Notes under the pieces: model-generated | Database searches by the model: none | Seen by the model: only the letters and a program-made list of their open reading frames with translations | What the model was told of the DNA's origin: nothing | Program-made: the position numbers and the translations under genes | DNA from: an uncultured Gemmatimonadales bacterium | Lineage (GTDB): Bacteria > Gemmatimonadota > Gemmatimonadetes > Gemmatimonadales > GWC2-71-9 | Length of the DNA stretch: 64,000 nucleotides | Reading direction: 5' to 3' | NCBI GenBank assembly: GCA_963821525.1 | Contig: CAWGED010000018.1 | Span: forward strand, 259-64,258 | Part shown: positions 10,454 to 64,000 of the stretch, piece by piece | Position numbering within the stretch: position 1 is the stretch's first letter | How the letters are laid out: every line of letters begins with the position of its first letter

Positions 10454-10525
10454 TGAGCGATGAGGGACTTGAACCCCCGGCCTCGCATGTGAGGCGCGTG
10501 CTCTAACCAGCTGGGCTAATCGCCC
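10454..10525 (-). pseudogene. degenerate tRNA-Val(CAC)-like copy (72 nt)
   Basis: Aligns over its full length with 11887-11960. It has a 2-nt deletion in the 3' anticodon stem, a D-stem C-A mismatch and a G-T in the acceptor stem. Confidence 0.65.
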
Positions 10526-10593
10526 AGTCCAATCTTCGGCATTGTTTGCGGGAACAGGATTGGTGGATCTCCTGCTGCTTTTGCGATGGCCTC

Positions 10594-10628
10594 GTCAGCC
10601 GTCAGCAAAATGACATTAGCCCTAAGCC
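10594..10628. repeat. one-armed heptamer array (GTCAGCC GTCAGCA AAATGAC ATTAGCC CTAAGCC)
   Basis: Read directly. Same word family as 696-802 and 4790-4864. Confidence 0.5.
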
Positions 10629-10707
10629 ACGACCTCACTCGTCCTTCACGGCCCCTTCATCCCCTAATGCTAGCTTCTGATCAGAATGAACCAGCAAAGG
10701 GGGCTCC

Positions 10708-11202
10708 ATGTCTATCAATCCCGCGCATCTTCACCTCGCGCTGAACCATCTCCCAGTACTCGGCGTCCTGTTCGGCACTATCCTGCTCGCCGTCGGTCTC
10801 TGGCGCCGGAACGACACGATTCGGCGGACCAGCCTCGTTGTCCTGCTGTTGACGGGGGCAGCAGCAGGCGCGGTTTACCTGACCGGCGAACCGGCTGAAG
10901 AGTTGATAGAGAACGCGGCTGTGGTGTCGGAAAGACGGATCGAGCGGCATGAAGACGCCGCCGCCGTGGCCACCTCCGGGGCGGCTCTTCTCGGTGTGGC
11001 CGCTCTCCTGCTCCTCTGGCGTTCGCGCCGTACCGGGTCGATGCCATCGACCTTGCTCCTGGCGACCTTTGGTTTGGCGGTGCTGACGACGGTGCTGATG
11101 GCCTGGACCGCGAACCTTGGAGGGCAGATCCGGCATTCGGAGATCACCACTGCCGGCGTGACGTCGACCGAGGCCGCGACACCCGACGACGCGGACGAGT
11201 GA
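10708..11202 (+). CDS. hypothetical polytopic membrane protein with conserved His residues
   Basis: SD AAAGGGGG. Four hydrophobic segments; HLHLALNHLP, ERHED and IRHSE. Lies between two tRNA-Val copies next to the nor operon. Confidence 0.7.
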   Translation: MSINPAHLHLALNHLPVLGVLFGTILLAVGLWRRNDTIRRTSLVVLLLTGAAAGAVYLTGEPAEELIENAAVVSERRIERHEDAAAVATSGAALLGVAALLLLWRSRRTGSMPSTLLLATFGLAVLTTVLMAWTANLGGQIRHSEITTAGVTSTEAATPDDADE

Positions 11203-11242
11203 GCGGCAAGCCCGGCCCTCACGATCGAGTGGCCATAAGCCC

Positions 11243-11282
11243 GGAAATCAATCGACCCTCCGATCCACAACCGGAGGGTCGA
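11243..11282 (-). terminator. hairpin downstream of the truncated tRNA copy (paralogue of 10381-10421)
   Basis: Stem TCGACCCTCCG/CGGAGGGTCGA. On the minus strand it is followed by TTGATTTCC. Confidence 0.4.
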
Positions 11283-11322
11283 CTAGACCGCTACTCGCTG
11301 ATAGCTAACCGCTAACCACCAA

Positions 11323-11395
11323 TGGGCGATGAGGGACTTGAACCCCCGACCTCGCGCATGTGAAGCGCGCGCTCTATCGCCGCTATAGCCAGCTG
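11323..11395 (-). pseudogene. truncated tRNA-Val(CAC)-like copy lacking the 5' acceptor strand
   Basis: The 3' 53 nt are near-identical to the intact gene (anticodon loop TTCACAT). The D-region carries a 12-nt insertion, and no GGGCGAT 5' strand is present. Confidence 0.65.
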
Positions 11396-11591
11396 GCGCG
11401 CGGTTGATTTCCTGGTGCTCCCCCACAACACCAAGGCAACCCAAACAGCGCTCGTCTCACTGGACGGCCCCTTAGCGGATCGCTCAGGCTACGACCGCGA
11501 CGCATCCCCCTGGTGGTCGGCGTGTGGCCTGCTGTGACCGGGCAGCCGTGCAGACCAGGGGGTCGGGCCCGTCCCGACCAACCCAAGACTC

Positions 11592-11750
11592 TCAGCAGGC
11601 GCTTACCTGATAGGTGCAGTACCCGCCGCCAGTGCCACGCCCGCCGACCGGGTCACGCTTCGGCGTGAGGTCTCGCAGAGTTTTCTTAGTGAGGGTCAGA
11701 CGCTTAGCCTTTTTCTGTCGGGTGCTGAGCGATTTGCCGCGCTTGGTCAT
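11592..11750 (-). CDS. 52-aa basic peptide with GG-leader-like architecture (possible RiPP/bacteriocin precursor)
   Basis: ATG 11748-11750 lies 4 nt after GGAGG, with TACAAT 11 nt upstream of the ATG. Reads MTKRGKSLSTRQKKAKRLTLTKKTLRDLTPKRDPVGGRGTGGGYCTYQVSAC. Below the ORF-track cut-off. Confidence 0.45.
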   Translation of the reverse strand: MTKRGKSLSTRQKKAKRLTLTKKTLRDLTPKRDPVGGRGTGGGYCTYQVSAC

Positions 11751-11845
11751 ACGGCCTCCAGATTGTAAGGATTTAACGGTCGTAGTCAGAGATCGCGAAC
11801 GGGCGGGGAAACCCGACAGCCTTCATTGACAGGATCGGAAAGGAG

Positions 11846-11880
11846 AAAGCCCCGCAAAACTCTGCGGGGCTTTCTTTTTG
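11846..11880 (+). terminator. canonical intrinsic terminator shape, T-tract on the plus strand
   Basis: Stem AAAGCCCCGCA/TGCGGGGCTTT, loop AAACTC, then CTTTTT. Sits 7 nt from the 3' end of the minus-strand tRNA-Val, so it may act bidirectionally. Confidence 0.6.
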
Positions 11881-11886
11881 CAAACA

Positions 11887-11960
11887 TGGGCGATGAGGGA
11901 CTTGAACCCCCGACCTCGCGCATGTGAGGCGCGCGCTCTAACCAGCTGAGCTAATCGCCC
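11887..11960 (-). tRNA. tRNA-Val (anticodon CAC)
   Basis: 74-nt cloverleaf: acceptor GGGCGAT/ATCGCCC, D arm GCTC-AGCTGGTTA-GAGC, anticodon arm CGCGC-CTCACAT-GCGCG, T arm GGGGG-TTCAAGT-CCCTC. CCA is not encoded. Confidence 0.9.
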
Positions 11961-49685: not shown

Positions 49686-50825
49686 GTGACCTCCCCCCTC
49701 ACCACCGACACTCCCTGGTCCGTCACGCAGGTCGCCCGCATGGCCCGGCGCTACATCGAGGCCGGCCTCGGCATGATCTGGATCCGGGGTGAGATCGCGG
49801 AAATCAAGATCTACCAGAGCGGTCACTGGTACTTCACCCTCAAGGATGCCGAGTGCCAGATCCGCGGGGTGATGTGGAAGAGCGACGCACAGCGATTCGG
49901 CTTGCCTCCCGCGGTGGGCGCCCAGGTCTTCGTCTTCGCCAAGCCGACCATCTGGGAGGAGCGAGGCGAATTCCGGCTCAGTGCCACAGAGATGCTGGTG
50001 ACCGACCGGCTGGGTCTCGAGCACCTCGAGCTGCAGAAGATCAAGGCCGCGCTCGAGAAGGATGGACTGTTCGATCCGTCGCGGAAGCGCTCGCTGCCCG
50101 AGTGGCCCTCCTGCATCGCCGTGGTGACCAGTCTGGATGGTGCTGCCTTGAGGGACATCATCACCGTGGCCCGGAAGCGCTGGCGCTCACTGGAAATCCG
50201 GGTGATCGGCGCCAAGGTCCAGGGTGCCGAAGCCGAGCTCGAAATGGTGCGAGCCCTCAAACTGGTCAATCGGCTGGAGGGAGTCTCGCTGTGTATCGTG
50301 GCCCGGGGCGGCGGTGGCAAAGAAGACCTCGCCGTCTTCAACAGCGAAAAAGTCTGCCGCGCGCTGGCACAAGTGAAGGTCCCCACCATCTCCGCTGTCG
50401 GGCATGAGACCGACGTGTCCTTCACTGATTTCGTGGCCGACTGCAGAGCTCCGACTCCTTCGGCGGCGATAGAGCTGGCGGTGCCGGACAGCGCCGAGCT
50501 GATCGATCGAGTCAACCATCTGGCTGTACGGCTTGCCAACGCGGTGGGGCAGGGAACCCGGCTCGCGGTCGAGCGACTGGAGCGTTCGGGAGATCGTCTG
50601 CACGCCGCCGTGACCAATCTCCTGGAGCGTCGTCAGCGCCAGGTGGACCGGCTCGGCGCGCAACTGGACGCATTGAGCCCGCTGAAGGTCCTTGAACGGG
50701 GGTTCGCCCTCCCCCGAGCCGAGGATGGCCGGGTGTTGCGCCGCGCCGCCGAATTCACTCCCGCCTTGTCGTTCCGGCTCCGCGTCATCGACGGCGAGGT
50801 CCCGGCCCGAGTGGAGGAGAATTGA
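49686..50825 (+). CDS. xseA: exodeoxyribonuclease VII large subunit
   Basis: OB fold WIRGEIAE..GHWYFTLKD, then the catalytic region ARGGGG.EDL..FN. Confidence 0.9.
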   Translation: MTSPLTTDTPWSVTQVARMARRYIEAGLGMIWIRGEIAEIKIYQSGHWYFTLKDAECQIRGVMWKSDAQRFGLPPAVGAQVFVFAKPTIWEERGEFRLSATEMLVTDRLGLEHLELQKIKAALEKDGLFDPSRKRSLPEWPSCIAVVTSLDGAALRDIITVARKRWRSLEIRVIGAKVQGAEAELEMVRALKLVNRLEGVSLCIVARGGGGKEDLAVFNSEKVCRALAQVKVPTISAVGHETDVSFTDFVADCRAPTPSAAIELAVPDSAELIDRVNHLAVRLANAVGQGTRLAVERLERSGDRLHAAVTNLLERRQRQVDRLGAQLDALSPLKVLERGFALPRAEDGRVLRRAAEFTPALSFRLRVIDGEVPARVEEN

Positions 50826-51073
50826 TGGCCGAGGAAAATCGCGCCGAGGAGACACCGACGCTGGCCGAAGACCTGCGCCGGCTCGAGGAGATCGTCCGGC
50901 GTCTCGAGTCCAATGACGGTGATCTGGATCAGGCGCTGGCGCTCTTCGAGGAGGGTGTCGCACGCCTGCGCAGCGCCAGGGCGAGGTTGTCGGGCGCAGA
51001 GGTGCGGGTGCGCAAAGTGGTCGCCGACGCGCGGGGTGCCTTGCGGATGGACGATCTCGACGGCGAGCAGTAA
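50822..51073 (+). CDS. xseB: exodeoxyribonuclease VII small subunit
   Basis: 83 aa; LEEIVRRLESNDGDLDQALALFEEGV. Confidence 0.9.
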   Translation: MMAEENRAEETPTLAEDLRRLEEIVRRLESNDGDLDQALALFEEGVARLRSARARLSGAEVRVRKVVADARGALRMDDLDGEQ

Positions 51074-51076
51074 TCG

Positions 51077-51982
51077 GTGCGCGAGGAGGACTCTGCCCGG
51101 GTGATCCTGGCCGAGGCGCGGGAGCGAACCGACGAGCTCCTTCAGGCGTGGGCCGAACGGATCAGGGGCATGGTGCCGGGCCGTACCGGAGAGGCGCTCG
51201 CCTACGCGATGAACACGCCGGGCAAGCGCGTCCGGGCCGCGTTGGTGCTCGCTGCCTACCGGTCGGTCGGTGGATTCTCACCCGCGATCGCCGCGGTGGC
51301 TGCCGCGGTCGAAACGGTGCACACCTACTCGCTGGTCCACGACGATCTGCCCTGCATGGACGACGACGACCTCCGTCGCGGGCGTCCCACCACCCACCGG
51401 GCATTCGACGTTCCTACCGCGACACGAGTCGGCCTGCTCATGGTGCCGGTTGCCGCTTTGGTGCTCGCCCAGGCGGCGCAGGATCTCCGCCTGCCTCCCG
51501 CGACCTCCGGCCGGGTGGCGCGTGAGCTGTTCGAGGCGAGCGGGATCCGCGGGATGGTCGGCGGCCAGTGGCTCGACCTCGAGGCCGAAGGCGCCGCCCT
51601 CGATCTGAAAGGGCTGACCGCCGTCCACGAAGGCAAGACGGGCGCGCTGATTCGTGCCGCGTGCGTCATGGGAGCGCTGGCGGCCGAGGCACCGGCGGCC
51701 GCCGTCAACGCACTCAGCTCCTATGGGCAGGACATCGGACTCGCCTTCCAGGTCGCCGATGACGTGCTCGACGCCACGGCCACCAGCGCCCAGCTCGGCA
51801 AGACCGCCGGCCGCGACGCGGCGCTTGCCAAGTCGACCTATGTGGGTCTGCTGGGCGTAGAAGGAGCCCGGAAAGAGGCGCGAAGCCTGGCGAACCGGGC
51901 AGTCAAACACTTGCAGCGGGCCGGTTTCGCCTCGGGCTCGTTGGAGGCGTTGGCGGAGTATATTGTAACGAGACAGTCTTGA
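51077..51982 (+). CDS. ispA: polyprenyl (farnesyl/geranylgeranyl) diphosphate synthase
   Basis: FARM HDDLPCMDDDDLRRG and SARM FQVADDVLD. Confidence 0.85.
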   Translation: MREEDSARVILAEARERTDELLQAWAERIRGMVPGRTGEALAYAMNTPGKRVRAALVLAAYRSVGGFSPAIAAVAAAVETVHTYSLVHDDLPCMDDDDLRRGRPTTHRAFDVPTATRVGLLMVPVAALVLAQAAQDLRLPPATSGRVARELFEASGIRGMVGGQWLDLEAEGAALDLKGLTAVHEGKTGALIRAACVMGALAAEAPAAAVNALSSYGQDIGLAFQVADDVLDATATSAQLGKTAGRDAALAKSTYVGLLGVEGARKEARSLANRAVKHLQRAGFASGSLEALAEYIVTRQS

Positions 51983-51994
51983 GGCGAGGAGGCA

Positions 51995-52076
51995 GGAAGT
52001 AGGGGGTGGGGAATGGGGAGTAGGGCGTCAGCTTGAGCTTGGGAGCAAGCCCTACTCCCTACACCCTATTCGCTAC
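51995..52076. repeat. heptamer-array palindrome (GGAAGTA GGGGGTG GGGAATG GGGAGTA GGGCGTC | GCCCTAC TCCCTAC ACCCTAT TCGCTAC)
   Basis: Read directly. Confidence 0.7.
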
Positions 52077-52101
52077 AACCTGCCGTGCCCAAACCCAAAA
52101 C

Positions 52102-54000
52102 ATGACCCTTCTTCCATCCATCCACAGCCCCGCCGATCTCAAGGCCATCCCCCGGGAGCAACTCCCCGAGCTGGCCCAGGAGATTCGCACTCGGCTGATC
52201 GAATGTGTCTCCCTGACGGGTGGTCACATCGGCGCCAGCCTGGGAACCGTGGAGCTGGCCATCGCGCTCTTGTACGAGTTCGATTCCCCGCACGACAAGA
52301 TCCTGTGGGATGTGGGACACCAGGCATACGCGTGGAAGCTGCTGACCGGCCGCAACGATCGCTTCCCCACACTGCGGCAGACCGATGGAGTCTCCGGCTT
52401 TCTCAAGCGGGACGAGAGCGAGCACGACCAGTTCGGCGCGGGACACGCGGCCACCGCCATGTCGGCGGCACTGGGGATGGCCACGGCCCGCGACCTCAAG
52501 GGCGAGAACTACAAGGTCGTTGCCGTGGTAGGAGACGGTGCGCTCACGTCGGGTCTCAGCTACGAGGGGATGAATAACGCCGGTCACTCCGACCGGGACA
52601 TCATCCTGATCGTGAACGACAACGGGATGTCGATTTCTCCCAATGTCGGCGCCATCAGCAAGACACTGGGCGCCATCGTCGCGATGCCGGTCACCAACCG
52701 GTTCCGGGAGCGGCTCAAGCATTTCACCATCCGGCTGAGCCACGTCTTCGGTGAAGGTGTGGTGGACTTCGCCAAGAACGTGGAGGAGAGCGCCAAGAAT
52801 CTCTTCTCCGAAGGAATGCTGTTCGAGGAGCTGGGCTTTCGCTACTTCGGTCCGATTGACGGGCACGATATCAAGAAGCTGTCGGATACCTTGCGCTTCG
52901 TGAAAGGAATGTCGGGCCCCCGCGTGGTCCACGTGCTCACGGAGAAGGGGAAGGGCTTCGCCTTCGCCGAATCGAATCGGGAGAAGTGGCACGGTCTCGC
53001 CGCCTACGATCCGGTGACCGGCGAAGCGCGGAAGAAATCTTCCGGCCCTCCCACCTGGACCCAGGTATTCGGCGATGCCATCTCGGCACTCGCGGCCGAT
53101 CATCCGGATCTGGTGGCGATCACCGCCGCGATGCCCAGCGGCACGGGAACCAACATCTTCCAGAAGAAGTGGCCCAACCGGTTCTTCGACGTCGGGATCG
53201 CCGAAGGCCACGCGGTCACTTTTGCCGGTGGGCTCGCGACTCAAGGTGTCCGGCCCATCGTCGCGATCTATAGCACGTTCCTGCAACGGGCGTACGACAA
53301 CATCATCCACGACATCGCGGTCCAGCACCTTCCGGTGATCTTCTGCATGGACCGCGCTGGCCTGGTGGGCGAAGATGGCCAGACCCACATGGGGCTCTAC
53401 GACATCGCTTACATGCTGGCGGTGCCGGGGATGACGGTGACGGCGCCCAAGGATGGCGATGAGCTGGCGGGCCTGCTCAAGACTGCTCTGACTCACGATG
53501 GCGGTCCCTTCTGCACCCGGTACCCCCGGGACAAGGCGCCGGCCGATCCGCGTCCCGTCGCCGAGGTGGAGCCGGTGCCTTATGGGACGTGGGAGATTCT
53601 GCGCCGCGGCAAGGACCTCGCGATTCTCGCCGTGGGTACGATGGTCCAGCCGGCCCTCGCCGCGGCCGAGACCCTGGCCTCCGAAGGGCTCGATTGCGCA
53701 GTGGTGAACTGCCGCTTCCTCAAGCCGCTCGACGCCGGCACCCTGGGCGAGCTGACCCAGGAGTACCGCACCTTCGTGACCATCGAGGAAGGCACCGTGG
53801 TGAACGGGTTCGGCGCTTACCTCTCCGAGGTCATGCAGACCACCTATCCCGAGGCGCGAGTCATCGCACTCGGCGTCCCCGACAGACTGATCGAACAGGC
53901 CCCGCGTGCCGAGCAGCTCGAAATGTTCGGGCTCACGGCGCAGGGCATCGCCCGCCGGATCCGCACGCTGTCCAGCGAGGAGAGCATCGCCGCCCGATGA
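52102..54000 (+). CDS. dxs: 1-deoxy-D-xylulose-5-phosphate synthase
   Basis: GGHIGASLG..WDVGHQAY..GDGALTSG..GIAEGHAV. ATG 52102; the upstream part of ORF 52033 is repeat. Confidence 0.95.
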   Translation: MTLLPSIHSPADLKAIPREQLPELAQEIRTRLIECVSLTGGHIGASLGTVELAIALLYEFDSPHDKILWDVGHQAYAWKLLTGRNDRFPTLRQTDGVSGFLKRDESEHDQFGAGHAATAMSAALGMATARDLKGENYKVVAVVGDGALTSGLSYEGMNNAGHSDRDIILIVNDNGMSISPNVGAISKTLGAIVAMPVTNRFRERLKHFTIRLSHVFGEGVVDFAKNVEESAKNLFSEGMLFEELGFRYFGPIDGHDIKKLSDTLRFVKGMSGPRVVHVLTEKGKGFAFAESNREKWHGLAAYDPVTGEARKKSSGPPTWTQVFGDAISALAADHPDLVAITAAMPSGTGTNIFQKKWPNRFFDVGIAEGHAVTFAGGLATQGVRPIVAIYSTFLQRAYDNIIHDIAVQHLPVIFCMDRAGLVGEDGQTHMGLYDIAYMLAVPGMTVTAPKDGDELAGLLKTALTHDGGPFCTRYPRDKAPADPRPVAEVEPVPYGTWEILRRGKDLAILAVGTMVQPALAAAETLASEGLDCAVVNCRFLKPLDAGTLGELTQEYRTFVTIEEGTVVNGFGAYLSEVMQTTYPEARVIALGVPDRLIEQAPRAEQLEMFGLTAQGIARRIRTLSSEESIAAR

Positions 54001-54866
54001 AGGTCGGAGTGGTCGGAAACCCGCGATACGCCGACCTCAAGGCGGTGCTGCAACAGTTGTCTCGCGAAGCGCCGTCGCGTGGCATCTCGCTGGTTACCGA
54101 GCCCAGTCTCACGCCTCTCTGGGACCTGAACCTCCCCCTGCTGGACGAAGTACCCGTGGATGCGCTCCTCACCTTTGGTGGGGACGGTACCTTGCTCCGC
54201 GGCATGCGGCTGCTCAATGGCCGCGAGGCTCCGATCCTGGGAGTCAATTTCGGCCGGGTCGGATTTCTCACCACCGCCGACCGCGACGGACTGATCCCCG
54301 CGCTCGATGCGCTGGTGTCGGGGCGCTATGTCCTCGAGCGCCGTCTGGTCCTCGTCGCCTCGATCATCAGCGACGGCGGCGGAGTCCGGAGCGAGCAGAT
54401 GGCGCTCAACGACGTCGCGATCCACAAGAGCGGCGTCGCCCGGGTCATCCGGGTGCGGGTCACGGTAGACGGTGAAAACGTCGGTCCTTACAGTGCGGAC
54501 GGGATCGTGGTCGCGACTCCAACCGGCTCGACCGCCTACTCGCTTAGTGCCGGTGGTCCCATCGTAGTACCGGGCGTCGAAGCCATGATTGTCACACCGG
54601 TCTGCGCTCATACCCTCGCGGTTCGCCCTCTCGTGGTGCCCGCCGACTCGGTCATCTGTATCGAGCCTCTCGCCCCGGGGACGGATGACATTCTTCTCTC
54701 CTATGACGGTCAGGTCGGTACTATGGTGGCCCTGGGAGATCGGGTGTATGTGCGACGCGCACCCAGCGCGGCATTGTTGATCCGAATCGGGCAGGAAGGC
54801 TACTTCTCCCGGATGCGGCAGAAGCTGGGCTGGGGAGATCTCTCCGAACGGGAAGTCATCCGGTGA
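53997..54866 (+). CDS. nadK: NAD kinase
   Basis: TFGGDGTLL..NFGRVGFL..ATPTGSTAYSLSAGGP. ATGA overlap with dxs. Confidence 0.9.
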   Translation: MKVGVVGNPRYADLKAVLQQLSREAPSRGISLVTEPSLTPLWDLNLPLLDEVPVDALLTFGGDGTLLRGMRLLNGREAPILGVNFGRVGFLTTADRDGLIPALDALVSGRYVLERRLVLVASIISDGGGVRSEQMALNDVAIHKSGVARVIRVRVTVDGENVGPYSADGIVVATPTGSTAYSLSAGGPIVVPGVEAMIVTPVCAHTLAVRPLVVPADSVICIEPLAPGTDDILLSYDGQVGTMVALGDRVYVRRAPSAALLIRIGQEGYFSRMRQKLGWGDLSEREVIR

Positions 54867-56517
54867 TTTCCGAGCTCCGCGTTCGGGACCTCGCCACCAT
54901 TTCCGAAGTCGTCCTCCAACTCGGCTCCGGCCTCAACGTCCTCACCGGTGAGACCGGTGCGGGAAAGTCCATGCTGGTGGACGCGATGGCGCTCCTGTTG
55001 GGCGAGCGGGCCGACAGCAGCATGGTGCGGCCTGGGGCCGGGCGGGCCATCGTCGAGGGAGCATTCGAGCTGACGGATCCGGCTCTCCGGCGCCGCCTCG
55101 ATGCTGCCGGGCTCGATTCCGAGGATGACCGCTGATCATTCGCCGCGAGGTTTCCAGCGACGGGCGATCCAGGGCCTGGATCAACGGCAGTCCGACGACG
55201 GTCGCCATGCTGGGTCGGATCGGAGCCCTGCTCGTAGATCTGCACGGCCAGCACGAGACCCAATCGCTGCTTCACGCCGAGGCACAGCGCGACATCCTGG
55301 ATGCCTTCGCGGATGCGATGGCTGAACGGGCCGCGCTGGCCGAAACGCACGCCGCGGCGACCACGCTGGCCAACGAAGAAGCCGCTCTCATCGCCCGGCG
55401 CGACGAGGCGCTGCGCCGGGCCGACTACCTGCGCCACGTGGTGGACGAGATCGATCGGGCGAAGCTCAAGAGTGGGGAAGACGAAAGCCTCGACGCCGAA
55501 GCGCGCCGGTTGAATCACGCCGGAACGCTGGGTGAGCAGGCTCGGAAATTGGGCGGGCTGCTGGATGACGAAGAGGCCGGTGTGCTCCACGCCCTCGGTC
55601 AGGCTGACCGGCTCCTGGGCCAGCTCGATAAGGTGGATCCCGGGGTGACGCCGTGGCGGGAGCTGCTGGACACCGCCTACAACAATCTTTCGGAACTCGC
55701 GCGCCTGGCCGCTGAGTACGCCGAGTCGGTGCAGGAGGATCCGGCGCGCCTCGCGGAGATCGAACGCCGGCGCGACGTGCTGTTCCGGCTGCGGCAGAAA
55801 CACGGGGCGACGATCGAGGCGATCCTCGACACCCGCCGCCAGGCCGCGGCCGAGCTGGAGCTGCTCGATACGGCCGAGACCGACCTCCGCGCCATCGCGG
55901 CTCGCCGTACCGCGCTGGATGCGACGCTAAAGAGTGCCGCCGGGGCGCTCAGCACCAAGCGAAACGACGCGTCGGGCCGGCTCTCCCGCGCGGTCAACCG
56001 AATGCTGCCCGCGCTCGGATTGCCAGGCGGGAAGTTCTCTCTCGAACTGTCGCCGCTTTCAACGATTCAGGCGCAGGGGCAGGAATCCGTCGTCTTCATG
56101 GTACGGCTCAACGAGGGCATGGAGTGGCGTCCGCTCGCGCGCTCCGCATCGGGCGGAGAATTGTCCCGCCTCATGCTCGCACTGAAGGTCGTCCTTGCTC
56201 GGCACGACGCCGTTCCGACTCTCATCTTCGACGAGCTGGATCAGGGGGTCGGCGGCGAGGTGGGTGCGCAGGTAGGGAGTGCCTTGGCCCAGGTCGCCGA
56301 GCGGCGGCAGGTTCTCGTGATCACCCATCTCCCTCAGATTGCGGCCCGCGCCACCCGGCACCTCGTCGTGTCCAAGCAGGCCCGGCAGGGAATCGCGACC
56401 AGCGACGTGGAAGTGATCCACGGCGAAGACCGCATTACTGAGCTGGCGAGGATGTTGGGGGATGCGGATGCCGATACGGCAAGGCGGCATGCTCAAGCAA
56501 TGCTTGAGAGTACCTAG
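54863..56517 (+). CDS. recN: DNA repair protein RecN, one frame break at about 55131
   Basis: Walker A GETGAGKS (ORF 54863). LIIRREVSSDGRSRAWINGSPTTV..LHGQHETQSLL and the signature SGGELSR with Walker B LIFDELD are in the ORF 55207 frame. Confidence 0.9.
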
Positions 56518-58221: not shown

Positions 58222-59364
58222 GTGAGCCCTCACGCGCCCAAGGCCCTCGCAACTTCGCTGTTTCAAAGGGTCTTTGCCAGTCAACCCACCGTCTTCGCTT
58301 CGGCGCCCGGGCGGGTGAATTTGATAGGGGAACACACCGACTACAATGGCGGGCCCGCCCTGCCTTTTGCGATCGAGCGGCGCACCGTCATAGCCGCCGC
58401 TCCAGCGCCGGCCTGGCAGGCGGTCTCGACCGTGGACGGCACGCCGCATCTCCTCGATCCGTCGGGACCTCCCGCCGGCGGGTGGACCGACTACCTGCGT
58501 GGCGTGATCAGGGTCCTGCAGCGGGAAAAACTGGCTCCGACCGGTGGCAGGATCGCGGTCGCCAGCTCCATCCCCATCGGCGCGGGACTCTCTTCTTCGG
58601 CCGCGCTCGCGGTAAGCCTCGCCAAGGCTCTCACCATGCTCTCCGGGCGAAGGGCGCCTCCGCCCCTCCTCGCCGAGCTTGCCTACCGAGCCGAACACGA
58701 TGAGGTCGGCGTGCGCTGTGGCCGGATGGACCAGACGATCGCCGCACTGGCGACCCGGGAGAGCGCGCTGCTGTTCGAATCAGCGACGGGCGAAGTGAGA
58801 CGGGTTCCACTGCTGGGACGGATCATCGTGATGGAGACCGGCGTCGAGCGGCGGCTGACCGATGGACAATACAACCAGCGCCGCAAGGAGTGCGAAGAAG
58901 CAATCAGTCTGCTTGCCGACCAGGAGCTTCACGTGCCATCGCTCGCGGCCATATCTCCGGAAGGCATGCCCCAGGTCGAGCGCCTGTTGCCTGTCCCCTG
59001 GTTGCTCCGGGCTCGCCACGTCGTGGGGGAGACCCAGCGCACCCGCACCGCCGCCTCGGCCCTCATGATGGGAGACCGAAATACTCTGGGCCGCATTCTC
59101 TTCGAGGGGCACGCATCACTGCGAGATAACTACCAGTGCAGCTGCCCCGAGGCGGATCTCCTGGTCGAGTCCGCGCGAACTCACGGCGCCATCGGCGCGC
59201 GACTCACCGGTGCCGGATGGGGAGGTGCCGTGATTCTGCTGACGCCTCCCGGCCACGAGGCACGAATCGTAGCCGAGGCCAGCGATGAGTTTCGGAAGGC
59301 CTTTGGAAGGTTTCCAGAGATCTGGCAGACGAGAGCGATGGGCGGGGTGAGGGCGGGCGGGTAG
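58222..59364 (+). CDS. galK: galactokinase
   Basis: APGRVNLIGEHTDYNGG and the GHMP motif PIGAGLSSSAAL. Confidence 0.9.
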   Translation: MSPHAPKALATSLFQRVFASQPTVFASAPGRVNLIGEHTDYNGGPALPFAIERRTVIAAAPAPAWQAVSTVDGTPHLLDPSGPPAGGWTDYLRGVIRVLQREKLAPTGGRIAVASSIPIGAGLSSSAALAVSLAKALTMLSGRRAPPPLLAELAYRAEHDEVGVRCGRMDQTIAALATRESALLFESATGEVRRVPLLGRIIVMETGVERRLTDGQYNQRRKECEEAISLLADQELHVPSLAAISPEGMPQVERLLPVPWLLRARHVVGETQRTRTAASALMMGDRNTLGRILFEGHASLRDNYQCSCPEADLLVESARTHGAIGARLTGAGWGGAVILLTPPGHEARIVAEASDEFRKAFGRFPEIWQTRAMGGVRAGG

Positions 59365-59368
59365 GCCA

Positions 59369-59564
59369 CAAAAGCGGGAAAAGGGAACAGGGAAAGCGGC
59401 GATACTGTGAAATTCACCTCATCCCGAGGAGCGAAGCGACGAGGGATCTAGCCTACCGGCCTACGCGCCTGACCCAGGACGGTAGATCCCTCGCTTCGCT
59501 CGGGATGAGGTGACTCGTGCTCGAGTCTTGCCCGCTCCGTTCCCCGTTCCCTGTTCCCGCTTTT
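59369..59564. repeat. composite palindrome with the full conserved core (59415-59512)
   Basis: Arms are AAAAGCGGGAAAAGGGAACAGGGAAAGCGG | CCCGCTCCGTTCCCCGTTCCCTGTTCCCGCTTTT. Core is CACCTCATCCCGAGGAGCGAAGCGACGAGGGATCTA ... TAGATCCCTCGCTTCGCTCGGGATGAGGTG. Confidence 0.8.
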
Positions 59565-60363
59565 AACTGTCCTCCCTTCCCATCCTCCACTTTATGAGCG
59601 CTGCCGCCAGTCCCGGCGCAATCCGGTTCAGCCAGAGCAGCGACCTCATCCATCGGGGCAAAACAAGTTCGCGTTTCCTTCCCTCCATCGCCTGCACGAT
59701 GAGCCGTGCCGCTTCAGCGGCTGGAAACGGTTGCGACCCGTGTCGTCGAGCCGAGTCTCCCATGGCGGTACCGGCTGGACCCACCGCATTCCGTCGCAGC
59801 GCTGTATCCCCGACCCAGTGCGGCAGCACCATCAGGATATCGGGCTTCCCGGGCTCCAGCTCCATCCGGAGCGAATCGAAGAAGCCATGCAGTGCATGCT
59901 TGGCGCCGGCGTAACCGGTGTGGAGCGGCACGCCGATCCGGCCCTGGAGCGAGGAGATGACGGTGATGAGTCCCTGGCTTTGACGCAGGTGGGGCAGAGC
60001 GGCGTGAGTGCAATAGACCGCAGAGAGATAGTTCACCGCGATGAGTCGCGCGAACAAGGTGGGATCGGTCACCTCGTCCAATCGGGCCCACATGCCCAGT
60101 CCGGCACAGAGCACCAGGTGATCGAGCCGCCCGAATTGATCGACGCTGCGCTGGATCAGGAGGCGGCATGAGCCGAGGTCGCTGAGGTCCCCCGGGAGGA
60201 TCAGCGCGTCGGGCTGCGAAGCAAGCTTGGCCGTTTCCTCGAGGCCCTTTACACTGCGCGCGGCGAGAACGAGCCGGAAACCTTGACCGGCAAGTGCGAC
60301 CGCCAGCTCCCGGCCGAGGCCGGACGAGGCGCCGGTAACAATCGCAACCGGCCCGCTTTCCAC
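59563..60363 (-). CDS. classical short-chain dehydrogenase/reductase (candidate acyl/alkyl-DHAP reductase)
   Basis: TGASSGLG and YAGAKHAL. The GTG start immediately follows the stop of the upstream flavoenzyme gene. Confidence 0.8.
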   Translation of the reverse strand: MESGPVAIVTGASSGLGRELAVALAGQGFRLVLAARSVKGLEETAKLASQPDALILPGDLSDLGSCRLLIQRSVDQFGRLDHLVLCAGLGMWARLDEVTDPTLFARLIAVNYLSAVYCTHAALPHLRQSQGLITVISSLQGRIGVPLHTGYAGAKHALHGFFDSLRMELEPGKPDILMVLPHWVGDTALRRNAVGPAGTAMGDSARRHGSQPFPAAEAARLIVQAMEGRKRELVLPRWMRSLLWLNRIAPGLAAALIKWRMGREDS

Positions 60364-62088
60364 CTAGCCGGCGCTCCCGCCCCGATCGAACGCGCTCACC
60401 ACCGGCTCGGCGAGTCCCCAGGCCTCGAGCGGGCGCTCCGATGGCAGGATCTTTCCCGGATTCATGATCGAGCGGGGATCGAGGCCCTCCTTGAGGGCTC
60501 GCACGGCGGTGACTCCCGCGGGACTGATGTCTTCGGTGATCCACGGCAGGTGCTCTGTTCCCACGGCGTGGTGATGAGAAAGCGTCGCCCCACCCGCAAG
60601 GAAAGAATCCTCCGCAGCCTTCTTGATGTAGAGATACTGCTCCAGTCCCCGATCGGCCTGCTGCAAACATCCGAAGGTGAAGTAGAGACTCGCGCCGGTG
60701 CGATAGGCGTGACTGACGTGGCAGCCCACGTAGGATTTCACCCCGGTGCGGCGAACGGCTGTCTCGATGGCGCTCAGGGTCGAGTGGTAGAGCGGCAGCA
60801 GGTTGCTCCAGACCGTCGCCGTCTCACTGACATCGGCCATCATGTTCCGGTCCATCACCCAGTCGCGGAGATAAGGGAAGTCGTATTTCCCGCGCTCGAA
60901 CGAACGGCCTGGTTCGGTGCCGAGGGCGAAACCGCCGTGGCGGCGATAGATCTCACTCACTCTGCGGTGAAGCTCGGGGCAAGTCTGCCGGTCTCCCTCG
61001 AAAACATTGAGCATCAGCGCCGAACGACTGAAATCGAAGTGTCTTACCCTCTTGAGATAGTTCTTGACCACTTTGCCGAGCAGTGCCTTGAGCGGCGGAG
61101 CCGCGGTCTTGTACGCGAATGACAGGGCGGTCTTGGCCGGGTCGTTGAGCCGGGTGACCGTCGGGATGCAGTCGGCTTCAACGCAGGCGCGGATGGCGTG
61201 GACTCCATCCTCGAAGTTCGGGAAGAGATATCCGTACGGCAGCCGGACCTCGGGAATCCGGTGCACCTGCATGATTGCTTCAGTGATCACGCCGAGTGTG
61301 CCCTCGCTGCCGATGCAGAAATGCTTGACGTCGATCCCGTTGGAAGAGCGGGGAACCGTGCGCGTCTCGATCGTGCCGCTCGGCGTCACCATGCGAAGAG
61401 CCACGACCATGTCTTCGATCTTGCCGTAGCGGTCGCTTTGCATGCCGGCCGAACGGGTCGCGATCCAGCCGCCCAGGGTCGAGAAGAGGAACGAGTCGGG
61501 GAAGTGGCCGAGGGTGAAGCCCTGCGCGTTGAGCTGCTGCTCCATGTGCGGGCCCATCACGCCGGCCTGGATCCGCGCCGTACCCGACACGGCGTCTACC
61601 TCCAGGACCCGGTCCATGCGGCGAAGGTCCAGTACGACGACCATCCGGCTTTCGTCATGAGCAGCCTCGACACAGCCCGCGATGTTGGACCCGGCCCCGA
61701 AGGGAATCAGGACCACGTCGTGGTCTGCGGCTGCGGCGACCAGCGTCGCCACCTCGGCCTCGTTCTCGGGGTAGATCACTCCATCCGGCGCCGCATCGAC
61801 GATTCCCCGGCGAAGGCGCCAGAGGTCCCGAAAGCTCTTGCCGTAGGCGTGGACCAGCCGTTCGCGTTTGGTGGTGGAGAAGCGCTCGCCGCCGAGCGAC
61901 GCATTGATGGCCGCACGGAATGCCGCGTTGGTTCTTGGAGGTGGGAGGGAGATGTCATCGAATGAAACGGGAGGCGTGCGTGTCGCCTCTCCGGTCATCC
62001 CAACGGAGTCCCGGATGAACGGCCAGAGCTCCGGCTTGTCGGAGATGTCAAACTCCGTCTGCTCGTCTCCCCAGCCCCACCATTTCAT
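60364..62088 (-). CDS. FAD-linked oxidase, alkyldihydroxyacetone-phosphate synthase-like
   Basis: MKWWGWGDE N-terminus, PCMH-type FAD domain VVLIPFGAGSNIAGC, long C-terminal cap. The start is taken at M36 of ORF 60364-62193. Confidence 0.75.
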   Translation of the reverse strand: MKWWGWGDEQTEFDISDKPELWPFIRDSVGMTGEATRTPPVSFDDISLPPPRTNAAFRAAINASLGGERFSTTKRERLVHAYGKSFRDLWRLRRGIVDAAPDGVIYPENEAEVATLVAAAADHDVVLIPFGAGSNIAGCVEAAHDESRMVVVLDLRRMDRVLEVDAVSGTARIQAGVMGPHMEQQLNAQGFTLGHFPDSFLFSTLGGWIATRSAGMQSDRYGKIEDMVVALRMVTPSGTIETRTVPRSSNGIDVKHFCIGSEGTLGVITEAIMQVHRIPEVRLPYGYLFPNFEDGVHAIRACVEADCIPTVTRLNDPAKTALSFAYKTAAPPLKALLGKVVKNYLKRVRHFDFSRSALMLNVFEGDRQTCPELHRRVSEIYRRHGGFALGTEPGRSFERGKYDFPYLRDWVMDRNMMADVSETATVWSNLLPLYHSTLSAIETAVRRTGVKSYVGCHVSHAYRTGASLYFTFGCLQQADRGLEQYLYIKKAAEDSFLAGGATLSHHHAVGTEHLPWITEDISPAGVTAVRALKEGLDPRSIMNPGKILPSERPLEAWGLAEPVVSAFDRGGSAG

Positions 62089-62740
62089 GTGGGTCGGTCC
62101 CGATGCCATGCTTGGCGCGCTCCCGCAGCTTGTGGACGCTCGTTTCGAGCTCTTCGGTGATGCGACGATAGGTAGCGAATGGTGTTTCGGCATCGCCCAT
62201 TGCGATCGGTTCTACCGGCGGGCCGAAGTGGACTTTGATATGACGGGGCCGCATGAACCAGTTGTTCTTGCGCCAGGCGCGGTAGGTCCCGTCGATGTAG
62301 GCCGGCACCAGCGGCAAGCCCAGCGTGGTCGAGACGACCGCCGGTCCCCGCTTGAACGGCTGCATCTCACCGGTGGGGGTCCGTGTCCCCTCAGGAAAAA
62401 TGATCAGCGCCCTGCCGCCCCCGTCCAGGAACCGCTTACACGCCTCGATGTGGGCCATCAACTGGCGCTGGGTCGCCCGCCGCTCCAGCGGAATCAGGTT
62501 GAACAGGAGGTTCGCGGCCGATTGCAGCCGGTTCCCGAAGAAGTAGTCCTGCGCCGCGACCATGGCGAAGTCGGTGAAGGGCCGCCCGCTCGCCAGCATG
62601 AGGGCGACCACGTCCATGTGACTCGCGTGGTTGCTGCACAGGATGAAGGGCCGGTCCGGGAGGTGTTCCTGCCCGAAGACATGCAACGGACAGTAGAGCC
62701 GGAACACCAGTCGGCTGAAGGCCTGAAACATCCAGGCCAT
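62048..62740 (-). CDS. PlsC/GPAT-family acyltransferase (candidate DHAP acyltransferase)
   Basis: HX4D block NHASHMD and FPEGTR block. Confidence 0.8.
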   Translation of the reverse strand: MAWMFQAFSRLVFRLYCPLHVFGQEHLPDRPFILCSNHASHMDVVALMLASGRPFTDFAMVAAQDYFFGNRLQSAANLLFNLIPLERRATQRQLMAHIEACKRFLDGGGRALIIFPEGTRTPTGEMQPFKRGPAVVSTTLGLPLVPAYIDGTYRAWRKNNWFMRPRHIKVHFGPPVEPIAMGDAETPFATYRRITEELETSVHKLRERAKHGIGTDPHEMVGLGRRADGV

Positions 62741-62743
62741 GTG

Positions 62744-63913
62744 CTACCTCCCGTACTTCACGTGGGCCAGGGCGAACTCGTTCGAGGCGATGGCGCCGCC
62801 CAGCGACAGCTCGAGCGCGAGCGCCGCGGCGCACACGATCTCGGCGAGACGCTTGGAGGAGCCGTCGCCGGTGCAACCGAGCAGCTCCAGGTTGCGGCGC
62901 TGGGCGGCGAGCCGGGTTCCCCCGCCCACCGTACCGACGCTGATCGAAGGCATGGAGAGCGTGGCGTACAGGTCGCCGCCATTCTGCACCTCGTAGTTCA
63001 CCAGGCCCAGACAATTCTCGACGACACAGGCCACGTCCTGCCCGGTGGCGAGGTAGATCGCGGCCAGCCCGTTGGCGACGTGCATGTTGAGCCCCATTAC
63101 CCCGGCCAGTTGAGAGGCGCGGGTGCACTGGGTCCACCCATCCACGAACGCCTGTGCGGTGGTGCGAACCACGCGACGGAGCGCCTTGGCCGAGACCATG
63201 GCACTCGCGATCACCTGGTGGCCCCGCCCGAGCAGCAGGGTACGGGCTGCGGGATTCTTATCGCCGTTGAAGTTGGACTCGATGAGGAAGCGGAAGGTCG
63301 AGCCCCGATAGTGCTCGCTGATGTAGTGGCAGGCCGCGTGACTCGCGAGGGTCACCATGTTCTGGCCGGCCGCGTCCGCCGTGTTGTAGACAAAGTCGAG
63401 TAGGACGCTGTTGTGCACGACATACTTGTCTACCCGGATCAGCTTCCCATGCCGCGTGGTCGACTCGGCCGCCCGGCGGATCGCGGGCATCTCGGCCTCG
63501 ATCCAGGTAAGGAACGGCTGACAGGCGTCTACGTCGGGGAAGATGAAGACGGGGCTGCGGGACACCTCCTGCTTCAGGTGGCGGGTCAGGATGCCGCCCG
63601 AGAGCGAGGTGAGATAGGCGCCGCGGGTCATCGAGATCGCCAGAGTTCCTTCCACCGTGCAGAGTGGCACGTAGTAGGTACCCTCCGCGTAGCTCCCGCG
63701 GACTACCAGCGGTCCGGCCACCGCGAGCGGCAGGCCGACGTAGCCGACGTGATTCTCGATGATCCCCTTGAGCTGTTCCGGAGGATCGGGAGGAAGTTCA
63801 TCCAGCATCACACCGGTCTTCTGCTCCAGCCAGGCACGGCGCAGCTCCATATCGGCTGCGGTATAGCCCCTGGGCAGGAGAGTAGACTGGGCGACGGGGG
63901 TCGTAGGTGGCAT
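62744..63913 (-). CDS. class-I-type HMG-CoA reductase-like protein (catalytic domain only)
   Basis: ENHVGYVGLP, DAAGQNM, YLATGQD, GTVGGGT and a C-terminal His (LAHVKYGR). Confidence 0.8.
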   Translation of the reverse strand: MPPTTPVAQSTLLPRGYTAADMELRRAWLEQKTGVMLDELPPDPPEQLKGIIENHVGYVGLPLAVAGPLVVRGSYAEGTYYVPLCTVEGTLAISMTRGAYLTSLSGGILTRHLKQEVSRSPVFIFPDVDACQPFLTWIEAEMPAIRRAAESTTRHGKLIRVDKYVVHNSVLLDFVYNTADAAGQNMVTLASHAACHYISEHYRGSTFRFLIESNFNGDKNPAARTLLLGRGHQVIASAMVSAKALRRVVRTTAQAFVDGWTQCTRASQLAGVMGLNMHVANGLAAIYLATGQDVACVVENCLGLVNYEVQNGGDLYATLSMPSISVGTVGGGTRLAAQRRNLELLGCTGDGSSKRLAEIVCAAALALELSLGGAIASNEFALAHVKYGR

Positions 63914-64000
63914 TTATTCGGACTGAGCAGGTGAGGCTGGAAGATAGCCTAGACGGCGGAGTGGCGGTAAGCCTGTCGCACGAGCGAAGGCGGAAGGCGG

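Follow-up and report, generated by a model that had tools for sequence, protein, structure and literature searches.

The 64-kb stretch of DNA analysed here, called the window below, probably equips its source, a soil Gemmatimonadales bacterium, to make a 1-O-alkyl (ether) glycerolipid from a compact four-gene operon. The operon encodes a protein resembling HMG-CoA reductase (HMGR; HMG-CoA, 3-hydroxy-3-methylglutaryl-coenzyme A), a PlsC-type acyltransferase, a flavoenzyme of the alkyl-dihydroxyacetone phosphate (alkyl-DHAP) synthase (AGPS) family and a classical short-chain dehydrogenase/reductase (SDR), and all four open reading frames (ORFs) are found on the minus strand within 59563-63913, just where a preliminary description of this DNA had placed them. 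We think it quite probable that together they specify a DHAP ("peroxisomal-type") route that makes 1-O-alkyl-sn-glycerol-3-phosphate de novo.

In the proposed pathway the HMGR-like protein, acting as a reductase of the FcrA type, would convert a long-chain acyl-CoA and 2 NADPH to a fatty alcohol, as its signature residues, clade and synteny suggest, and the short PlsC-like acyltransferase would convert DHAP to 1-acyl-DHAP, a step assigned from pathway logic and context. AGPS, a family assignment that its sequence and catalytic residues establish, would put the fatty alcohol in place of the acyl group and so form the ether bond of 1-O-alkyl-DHAP, and the SDR would use NADPH to reduce the C2 keto group, giving 1-O-alkyl-glycerol-3-phosphate (1-O-alkyl-G3P). 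Plasmanyl (alkyl-acyl) phospholipids would then be finished by the housekeeping PlsC and by enzymes for the head groups. The preliminary description had spoken of a complete, self-contained pathway; that functional reading is supported in silico, and completeness is still a hypothesis, since the acyltransferase is not a GNPAT orthologue and its DHAP specificity is a prediction.

An FcrA-type signature in the HMGR-like protein

The HMGR-like protein matches PF00368 with an E-value of 4e-105 (Pfam). With human HMGR numbering rebuilt from the 2q1l alignment, the catalytic residues E559, K691, D767 and H866 are retained both in the window protein and in all 121 close homologues (identity at least 57%), and the HMG pocket is altered by the changes S684E, K692N and K735Q, together with L862F. 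E684 and F862 are each present in 121 of the 121 homologues and N692 in 119. The protein departs from a canonical HMGR in two ways: it scores 306.9 bits against the NCBIfam HMGR equivalog model TIGR00533, below the cutoff of 441.8, and the residues that bind the HMG carboxylate, Ser684, Lys692 and Lys735, are all substituted.

A pocket of this kind has been described in FcrA, a class-I-HMGR-derived fatty acyl-CoA reductase that reduces acyl-CoA, not HMG-CoA, and is not inhibited by statin (Grossi et al. 2025, ISME J, PMC11948995). The characterised enzymes are Pb-FcrA (CUS01882.1) and the FcrA of N. pharaonis; FcrA, which came to light in the context of wax-ester synthesis, retains Glu559, Lys691, Asp767 and His866, carries Glu in place of Ser684 and a bulky residue in place of Leu862, and has assorted residues at the pocket lysine Lys735, which appears as "Lys795" in the text of that paper (PMC11948995). 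All three pocket features used there, an acidic residue at 684, a residue other than Lys at 735 and a bulky residue at 862, are found in the window protein, which we therefore read, from its active-site signature, as a putative FcrA-type enzyme. The two share the class-I HMGR fold, the catalytic Glu/Lys/Asp/His, the replacement of Ser684 by Glu, of Lys735 by a residue other than Lys and of Leu862 by a bulky aromatic residue, and a genome region using the methylerythritol phosphate (MEP) route. Unlike FcrA, the window protein consists of the core domain only and has no Lad/ACP (acyl carrier protein) extension, has Phe at 862 where FcrA has Trp, and shows the additional, near-invariant K692N change; it belongs to a distinct subclade, physically linked to AGPS and not to WS/DGAT, and its activity is a predicted one. 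FcrA activity has been demonstrated solely for a distant member of the family.

The HMGR-like protein was searched exhaustively against 1.84 billion cluster representatives, and its best 150 matches were analysed. The canonical S-K-K-L pattern occurs in just four of these representatives, one of them the Acidilobus HMGR, and the others are non-canonical. In a neighbour-joining tree with 100 bootstraps the canonical HMGRs (human, Methanothermococcus and the four S-K-K-L representatives, Acidilobus included) separate at 99/100, and the window protein falls in a 14-member, AGPS-linked subclade with support of 93/100. Some family members carry fused AMP-binding and PP-binding (phosphopantetheine; acyl-activating/carrier) domains, an indication of fatty-acyl substrates, and one representative comes from Alcanivorax, a wax-ester-producing genus.

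Other fusions recur in the family. In many FcrA-signature proteins the C-terminus carries a kinase-like domain (APH / EcKL / choline-kinase fold), and in others the fusion partner is DUF3419 or a PilZ domain at the N-terminus; these proteins (P0140, P0142, P0152, P0161, P0218 and P0129) are 800-1100 aa long and common among the top representatives. If the fusions mean a fatty-alcohol kinase or a c-di-GMP-regulated reductase, either would be novel.

The flavoenzyme and the SDR

The flavoenzyme aligns over nearly its full length with Dictyostelium ADPS (2uuu, E 5e-137) and over its full length with mammalian (Cavia) AGPS (4bby, E 3e-89); its Pfam matches are FAD_binding_4 (E 3e-37) and FAD-oxidase_C (E 2e-31). 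Outside AGPS the best flavoenzyme matches are glycolate oxidase and D-lactate dehydrogenase, which reach ~1e-30 and cover the flavin adenine dinucleotide (FAD) domain only, so that the margin of AGPS over any other flavoenzyme family is ~100 orders of magnitude in E. The comparison that the preliminary description had proposed, AGPS against D-lactate dehydrogenase and glycolate oxidase, accordingly comes down on the side of AGPS (5e-137 versus 4e-30). By the 4bby alignment, Arg419, Tyr578 and His615-617 of the SHHH loop (Cavia numbering) are kept, within TVTRLND, ASLYFTF and LSHHHAVG, respectively. Arg419, Tyr578 and His615-His617 are reported to have catalytic roles from structural work (Nenci et al. 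2012). On this evidence the flavoenzyme is, by sequence, a genuine alkyl-DHAP synthase (EC 2.5.1.26).

The SDR matches adh_short with an E-value of 1e-38 and scores 260.8 bits against NF004825 (cutoff 215). Its GASSGLG motif, Ser138, Tyr151-x3-Lys155 and an Arg36 after beta-2 are invariant in seven cassette SDRs, and Arg36 suggests the use of NADPH. Among solved structures it comes closest to clavaldehyde dehydrogenase (2jah, the best match) and to many entries of 11-beta-HSD1, which belongs to the SDR branch close to DHRS7 and DHRS7B. The cassette SDRs are orthologous, with identities of 31-44%, and wherever a cassette is complete the SDR gene follows that of AGPS or of the acyltransferase. 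We propose that the SDR would act as an NADPH-dependent acyl/alkyl-DHAP reductase (EC 1.1.1.101).

Conservation and distribution of the cassette

Loci were compared by tblastn with the four window proteins, and gene tables of further homologues were added. Of the 19 GTDB loci that the HMGR-like protein retrieved, 18 show these genes in this order, some of them cut short at contig edges, and with the order kept across loci the arrangement is not due to chance. The cassette thus recurs, as a survey of gene neighbourhoods suggested in the preliminary description was meant to reveal, both across GTDB loci and on further metagenome contigs. The full order is present in Gemmatimonadales, in about a dozen metagenome-assembled genomes (MAGs) of Ignavibacteria, in a Bacteroidetes MAG, in Verrucomicrobiales and in Marinimicrobia, as well as on a 9-Mb contig and on the contig carrying P0122; four GTDB MAGs hold copies of the HMGR-like protein that are 96-98% identical. 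The KSB1 contig terminates after the acyltransferase gene, and KSB1 probably has the cassette. In a Planctomycetota MAG (L016) the first three genes are present and no SDR match was obtained by tblastn. Judged by gene content and order, at least six bacterial phyla appear to carry the same operon.

Nearly all members of the AGPS-linked subclade that lie on long enough contigs adjoin AGPS. The distant members P0123, P0121 and P0126 have the pair of HMGR-like and AGPS genes, with the SDR present or absent and no acyltransferase. Two FcrA-signature proteins from outside the subclade, both on short contigs, instead adjoin genes for an ACP or for a CDP-alcohol phosphatidyltransferase.

The alcohol-forming enzyme itself can be exchanged. 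In a Bdellovibrionota MAG (L029, 5198-12762) the acyltransferase-AGPS-SDR core has a CDP-alcohol phosphatidyltransferase gene upstream, and no HMGR-like gene was found in the 12.8 kb examined; two genes from the core, on the opposite strand, lies the gene for a 560-aa fatty acyl-CoA reductase (FAR) of the classical PF07993 type. This FAR represents a non-orthologous displacement of the alcohol supplier. Taken together, the FcrA substitutions, the AGPS synteny across phyla and the FAR that stands in for the HMGR-like protein in one lineage support the earlier suggestion that the HMGR-like enzyme is the candidate supplier of fatty alcohol. The AGPS of L029 is called as two genes and may be frameshifted.

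Three further loci show variants or damage. In Verrucomicrobiales (L021/L022, 3347-13081) a fifth gene right after the SDR encodes a second PF01553 acyltransferase of 218 aa, 26% identical to the first, and genes for an MMPL transporter and a PAP2 phosphatase lie upstream of the cassette; this version may encode a full route to alkyl-acyl-glycerol plus its export. At L030 (6001-7546) the orthologous acyltransferase-SDR pair stands alone beside lgt, without AGPS or any reductase, and may give bacteria a way to lysophosphatidate through acyl-DHAP. In the Gemmatimonadales MAG MFD06229.bin.2.149 (L017, 8001-12369) all four genes, P0302 among the products, give split or shifted tblastn segments that look like long-read assembly frameshifts rather than real pseudogenes.

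The acyltransferase and the step that it would catalyse

The acyltransferase matches PF01553 with an E-value of 4e-20 (Pfam), and its translation contains the motifs NHASHMD and FPEGTR, as first described, together with LIPLERR. Its sole solved relative is PlsC of Thermotoga maritima (E 3.5e-17). Residue 10 of the query pairs with PlsC residue 54, so that the N-terminal stretch of PlsC is missing from the acyltransferase; we take that stretch to be the membrane-anchoring two-helix motif. Among the best 120 homologues listed, the proteins are short PF01553 members of 171-290 aa, with the exception of P0302, a 383-aa call in which a frameshift has produced an HMGR-like/acyltransferase fusion, and none is fused to a FAR. 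In other phyla the gene adjoins AGPS and/or the orthologous SDR.

The preliminary description had cast this protein as the counterpart of GNPAT, an identity that has to be given up: the 230-aa PlsC-like protein is no GNPAT orthologue, and a test of orthology with GNPAT or with the acyltransferase domain of the FAR-GNPAT fusion FARAT (a large protein or a FAR fusion) came out against it. From pathway logic and context we nevertheless infer that it is a DHAP acyltransferase making 1-acyl-DHAP, the weakest inference of all. Lacking the anchor segment, it is compatible with a soluble acceptor, going by the T. maritima PlsC structure.

Alternative readings

Several observations weigh against the proposed pathway. 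Position 735 is variable, with Lys in 32 of the 121 close homologues by alignment, and the window protein is ~40% identical to most FcrA-signature representatives, about equal to its identity to archaeal HMGR. The tree is unrooted and leaves out CUS01882.1 and the N. pharaonis FcrA; membership of the FcrA clade, judged from signature residues and separation from canonical HMGR, is not proven. The best database matches of the acyltransferase are lysophosphatidate acyltransferases (TIGR00530 and T. maritima PlsC). Finally, L024 and L025 lack the acyltransferase and L016 and L024 lack the SDR, so that the fcrA-like and AGPS genes are the sole constant pair.

Some of these points would suit an ether-lipid operon in which the acyltransferase is an AGPAT-like enzyme that acylates 1-O-alkyl-G3P at sn-2, after the SDR, with acyl-DHAP coming from elsewhere. 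PlsC/AGPAT proteins are its best family and structure matches, the acyltransferase-free loci L024 and L025 apparently obtain acyl-DHAP from another source, and the two acyltransferases of the Verrucomicrobiales cassette indicate that two acylation steps can be locally encoded. We consider this arrangement unlikely, however, in view of three points. A dedicated DHAP acyltransferase is an otherwise missing function, and no ordinary bacterial PlsB/PlsY/PlsC system is known to make acyl-DHAP. The absence of N-terminal anchor helices, again by the T. maritima structure, fits a soluble substrate. The acyltransferase-SDR pair of L030, which is without AGPS, makes sense as a DHAP acyltransferase and an acyl-DHAP reductase, not as an alkyl-G3P acyltransferase.

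Alternatively, the fatty alcohol and alkyl-DHAP derivatives might go not into bulk plasmanyl phospholipids but into a non-membrane product, for instance neutral alkyl-diacylglycerols, storage lipids resembling waxes, or a lipid used in signalling. In Myxococcus xanthus the AGPS route accounts for a minor share of ether lipids, which include the neutral developmental lipid TG-1 (PMC9131029), and wax-ester synthesis was the setting in which FcrA was discovered. This possibility seems to us rather improbable: there is no WS/DGAT or other neutral-lipid gene in the cassette or among the ORFs scanned in the 64-kb window, a scan that, for WS/DGAT, covered part of the window, and related cassettes adjoin CDP-alcohol phosphatidyltransferase, PAP2 and MMPL genes, a setting that suggests the handling of membrane phospholipids.

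That the HMGR-like gene encodes an ordinary HMG-CoA reductase beside AGPS by accident, as its strong PF00368 match, its four catalytic residues and the source annotation of its homologues (hydroxymethylglutaryl-CoA reductase) might suggest, can be considered most improbable given the replacement of S684, K692 and K735, the aromatic residue at 862, the sub-cutoff equivalog score, the separation of canonical HMGRs at 99/100, an AGPS adjacency kept in at least six phyla, and the presence of dxs and ispA in the window with no mevalonate-pathway gene nearby.

Operon layout and genomic surroundings

The reading frames are tightly packed (Table 1), and the junctions reported earlier are borne out. 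A GGGAGG Shine-Dalgarno sequence overlaps the end of the HMGR-like gene at its TAG stop (62744-62746), and 3 nt separate this stop from the acyltransferase ATG at 62740; the acyltransferase gene shares 41 nt with the start of agps (62048-62088); and the GTG start of the SDR at 60363 directly abuts the AGPS TAG (60364-60366). The longest ORF of agps opens at 62193, with an alternative ATG at 62088 (MKWWGWG...), and we place the start at 62088 because residue 1 then aligns in all related loci. The overlapping and abutting stop and start codons imply co-expression, and the position of GGGAGG across the end of the fcrA-like gene predicts translational coupling to the acyltransferase gene.

Table 1. 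Positions of the operon genes, their control elements and neighbouring genes in the 64-kb window
Feature	Position	Strand	Description
ispA (polyprenyl synthetase)	51077-51982	+	window ORF
dxs	52033-54000	+	window ORF
galK	58222-59364	+	galactokinase signature PF10509; convergent with the operon
Convergent galK(+)/SDR(-) intergenic region	59365-59562	.	nested inverted repeats; probable bidirectional terminator or operon end
Classical SDR	59563-60363	minus	266 aa, GTG start; adh_short
agps	60364-62088	minus	FAD-dependent, 574 aa; FAD_binding_4 + FAD-oxidase_C
PlsC-type (HX4D) acyltransferase	62048-62740	minus	230 aa; PF01553
GGGAGG Shine-Dalgarno of the acyltransferase gene	62747-62752	minus	read from sequence: GGGAGG TAG CAC ATG
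fcrA-like gene	62744-63913	minus	389 aa, core domain only, no Lad / ACP extension; PF00368
Operon 5' leader/promoter region	63914-64000	minus	runs off the window end

A promoter scan of 59000-64000 returned no sigma-70-like promoter, and a terminator scan of the same interval gave a single internal terminator-like match, fewer than expected from shuffled sequence. No T-tract terminator was found in the galK-SDR gap by a simple terminator scan. This gap of ~200 bp holds five nested inverted-repeat pairs, with G/A-rich 32-nt arms at both ends and, further in, arms of 15 nt and of 11 nt that match perfectly; it resembles a structured repeat element more than a simple terminator, and a terminator function would be an assignment from these features. 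An Rfam scan revealed no regulatory RNA, just three tRNAs away from the operon.

The remainder of the window is housekeeping chromosome, and the G+C content of the cassette equals that of its flanks. The classic xseA-(xseB)-ispA-dxs arrangement occupies 49686-54000 on the plus strand, 6 kb from the HMGR-annotated gene, and is followed, after dxs, by ORFs resembling NAD kinase and recN. The presence of ispA and dxs, which serves as an internal control, indicates the MEP route to isoprenoids, and no mevalonate-pathway gene was found within the 64-kb window. The neighbouring GHMP kinase was considered as a mevalonate kinase and ruled out by its PF10509 galactokinase signature and its convergent position on the other strand. 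The operon also cautions against taking "HMG-CoA reductase" annotations in bacteria as a sign of a mevalonate pathway.

The window ends shortly upstream of the operon, and the 98%-identical locus L001 was used to look for extra upstream genes. There the upstream region contains two-component regulator genes, a prephenate dehydrogenase gene, a tRNA-Leu gene and tandem repeats, these last two within the upstream 460 bp, and no further lipid gene; additional operon genes are therefore ruled out, and the operon has four genes. In L001 (7409-7958) a tRNA-Leu(taa) gene lies directly upstream of the fcrA-like gene on the opposite strand; after it come a tandem array, (TTCCGCCA) x 12.8, whose copies are perfect, and other repeats of 21, 25 and 39 nt. 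The window counterpart of this repeat region is 63940-64000, and the window ends inside it; the region may be a hot spot for insertions or have a regulatory role.

Elsewhere in the window, recN appears to be split (54863-56517, plus strand) into ORFs at 54863-55135 (90 aa) and 55207-56517 (436 aa, SMC_N), as either a frameshift or pseudogene or an assembly indel would explain. Three tRNA genes are clustered at 10454-11960 on the minus strand, of which the 60-nt tRNA at 11323-11382 scores 30.1 bits in Rfam against a threshold of 29 and may be truncated or degenerate.

Relation to known systems and significance

The closest described arrangement is the M. xanthus operon of MXAN_1676 (AGPS), MXAN_1675 (a FAR-GNPAT fusion, 'FARAT') and MXAN_1674 (NAD-dependent epimerase family) (PMC9131029, PMC13012113). 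In both operons AGPS is grouped with a reductase that forms fatty alcohol, with an acyltransferase of the HX4D type and with a reductase that depends on NAD(P), and the same DHAP chemistry is predicted for both. They differ in that the window operon has an HMGR-fold reductase in place of a Rossmann-fold FAR (PF07993), a free-standing 230-aa PlsC-like acyltransferase in place of a FAR-fused GNPAT-like domain, and a classical rather than an extended (epimerase-type) SDR, and in their gene order. By analogy, the operon can be regarded as a likely functional counterpart of MXAN_1676-1674 in which an FcrA-type reductase would replace the Rossmann-fold FAR.

The same four activities are predicted as in the eukaryotic peroxisomal pathway (FAR1/2, GNPAT, AGPS and DHRS7B/PexRAP), with AGPS a true homologue and the last enzyme a classical SDR, like DHRS7B. 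In contrast to that pathway, a fold not homologous to FAR takes its place here, the acyltransferase and GNPAT are not orthologues, and there is no organelle. The myxobacterial ElbD/elb system (ACS-ACP-FAR-AT) likewise couples acyl activation or reduction with an AGPAT-like acyltransferase for alkyl ethers, and some HMGR-like family members are themselves fused to AMP-binding and PP-binding domains; the elb route, unlike the cassette, has no AGPS and uses another reductase fold and a different ether-forming chemistry.

A role for FcrA in ether-lipid synthesis had been suggested for some members by Grossi et al., on the grounds that a plsC-like gene is its neighbour in Coxiella and that, in Ca. 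Promineifilum, AGPS is encoded nine genes off (PMC11948995). The preliminary description had hoped for a new type of alcohol-forming reductase; with FcrA and its possible ether-lipid role published in 2025 (PMC11948995), that claim is superseded. In our view no genomic evidence to date supports the idea of Grossi et al. more strongly than the conserved operon does. Our literature search found no paper describing a conserved fcrA-acyltransferase-agps-SDR operon, which appears to be undescribed before, and environmental surveys of ether-lipid genes screen for elbD, agps and ger/plsA, not for this operon. What is new here is the operon architecture, the AGPS-dedicated FcrA subclade and its spread over many, mostly uncultured phyla. 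Whether the AGPS-linked proteins, with their E684, N692 and F862, form a dedicated ether-lipid branch of FcrA, and the cassette a self-sufficient, horizontally spread module, is a proposal for and against which we see the case as evenly balanced.

Bacterial non-isoprenoid ether lipids are widely used environmental biomarkers and are relevant to the "lipid divide", and their producers and pathways are poorly known. The operon offers a set of genes for the DHAP route that is compact and testable and occurs in at least six mostly uncultured phyla, and a clean case of non-orthologous displacement, an HMGR-fold reductase or a Rossmann-fold FAR, around a conserved acyltransferase-AGPS-SDR core; as a four-gene cassette it would also be a convenient part for ether-lipid engineering in E. 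coli. If the reading of the cassette as a self-sufficient, horizontally spread module is correct, it would confer 1-O-alkyl glycerolipids on an ordinary ester-lipid bacterium, and Gemmatimonadota, Ignavibacteria, Verrucomicrobiota, Marinimicrobia and perhaps also Planctomycetota and KSB1 would be unrecognised, oxygen-independent sources of non-isoprenoid alkylglycerol ethers in soils and sediments.

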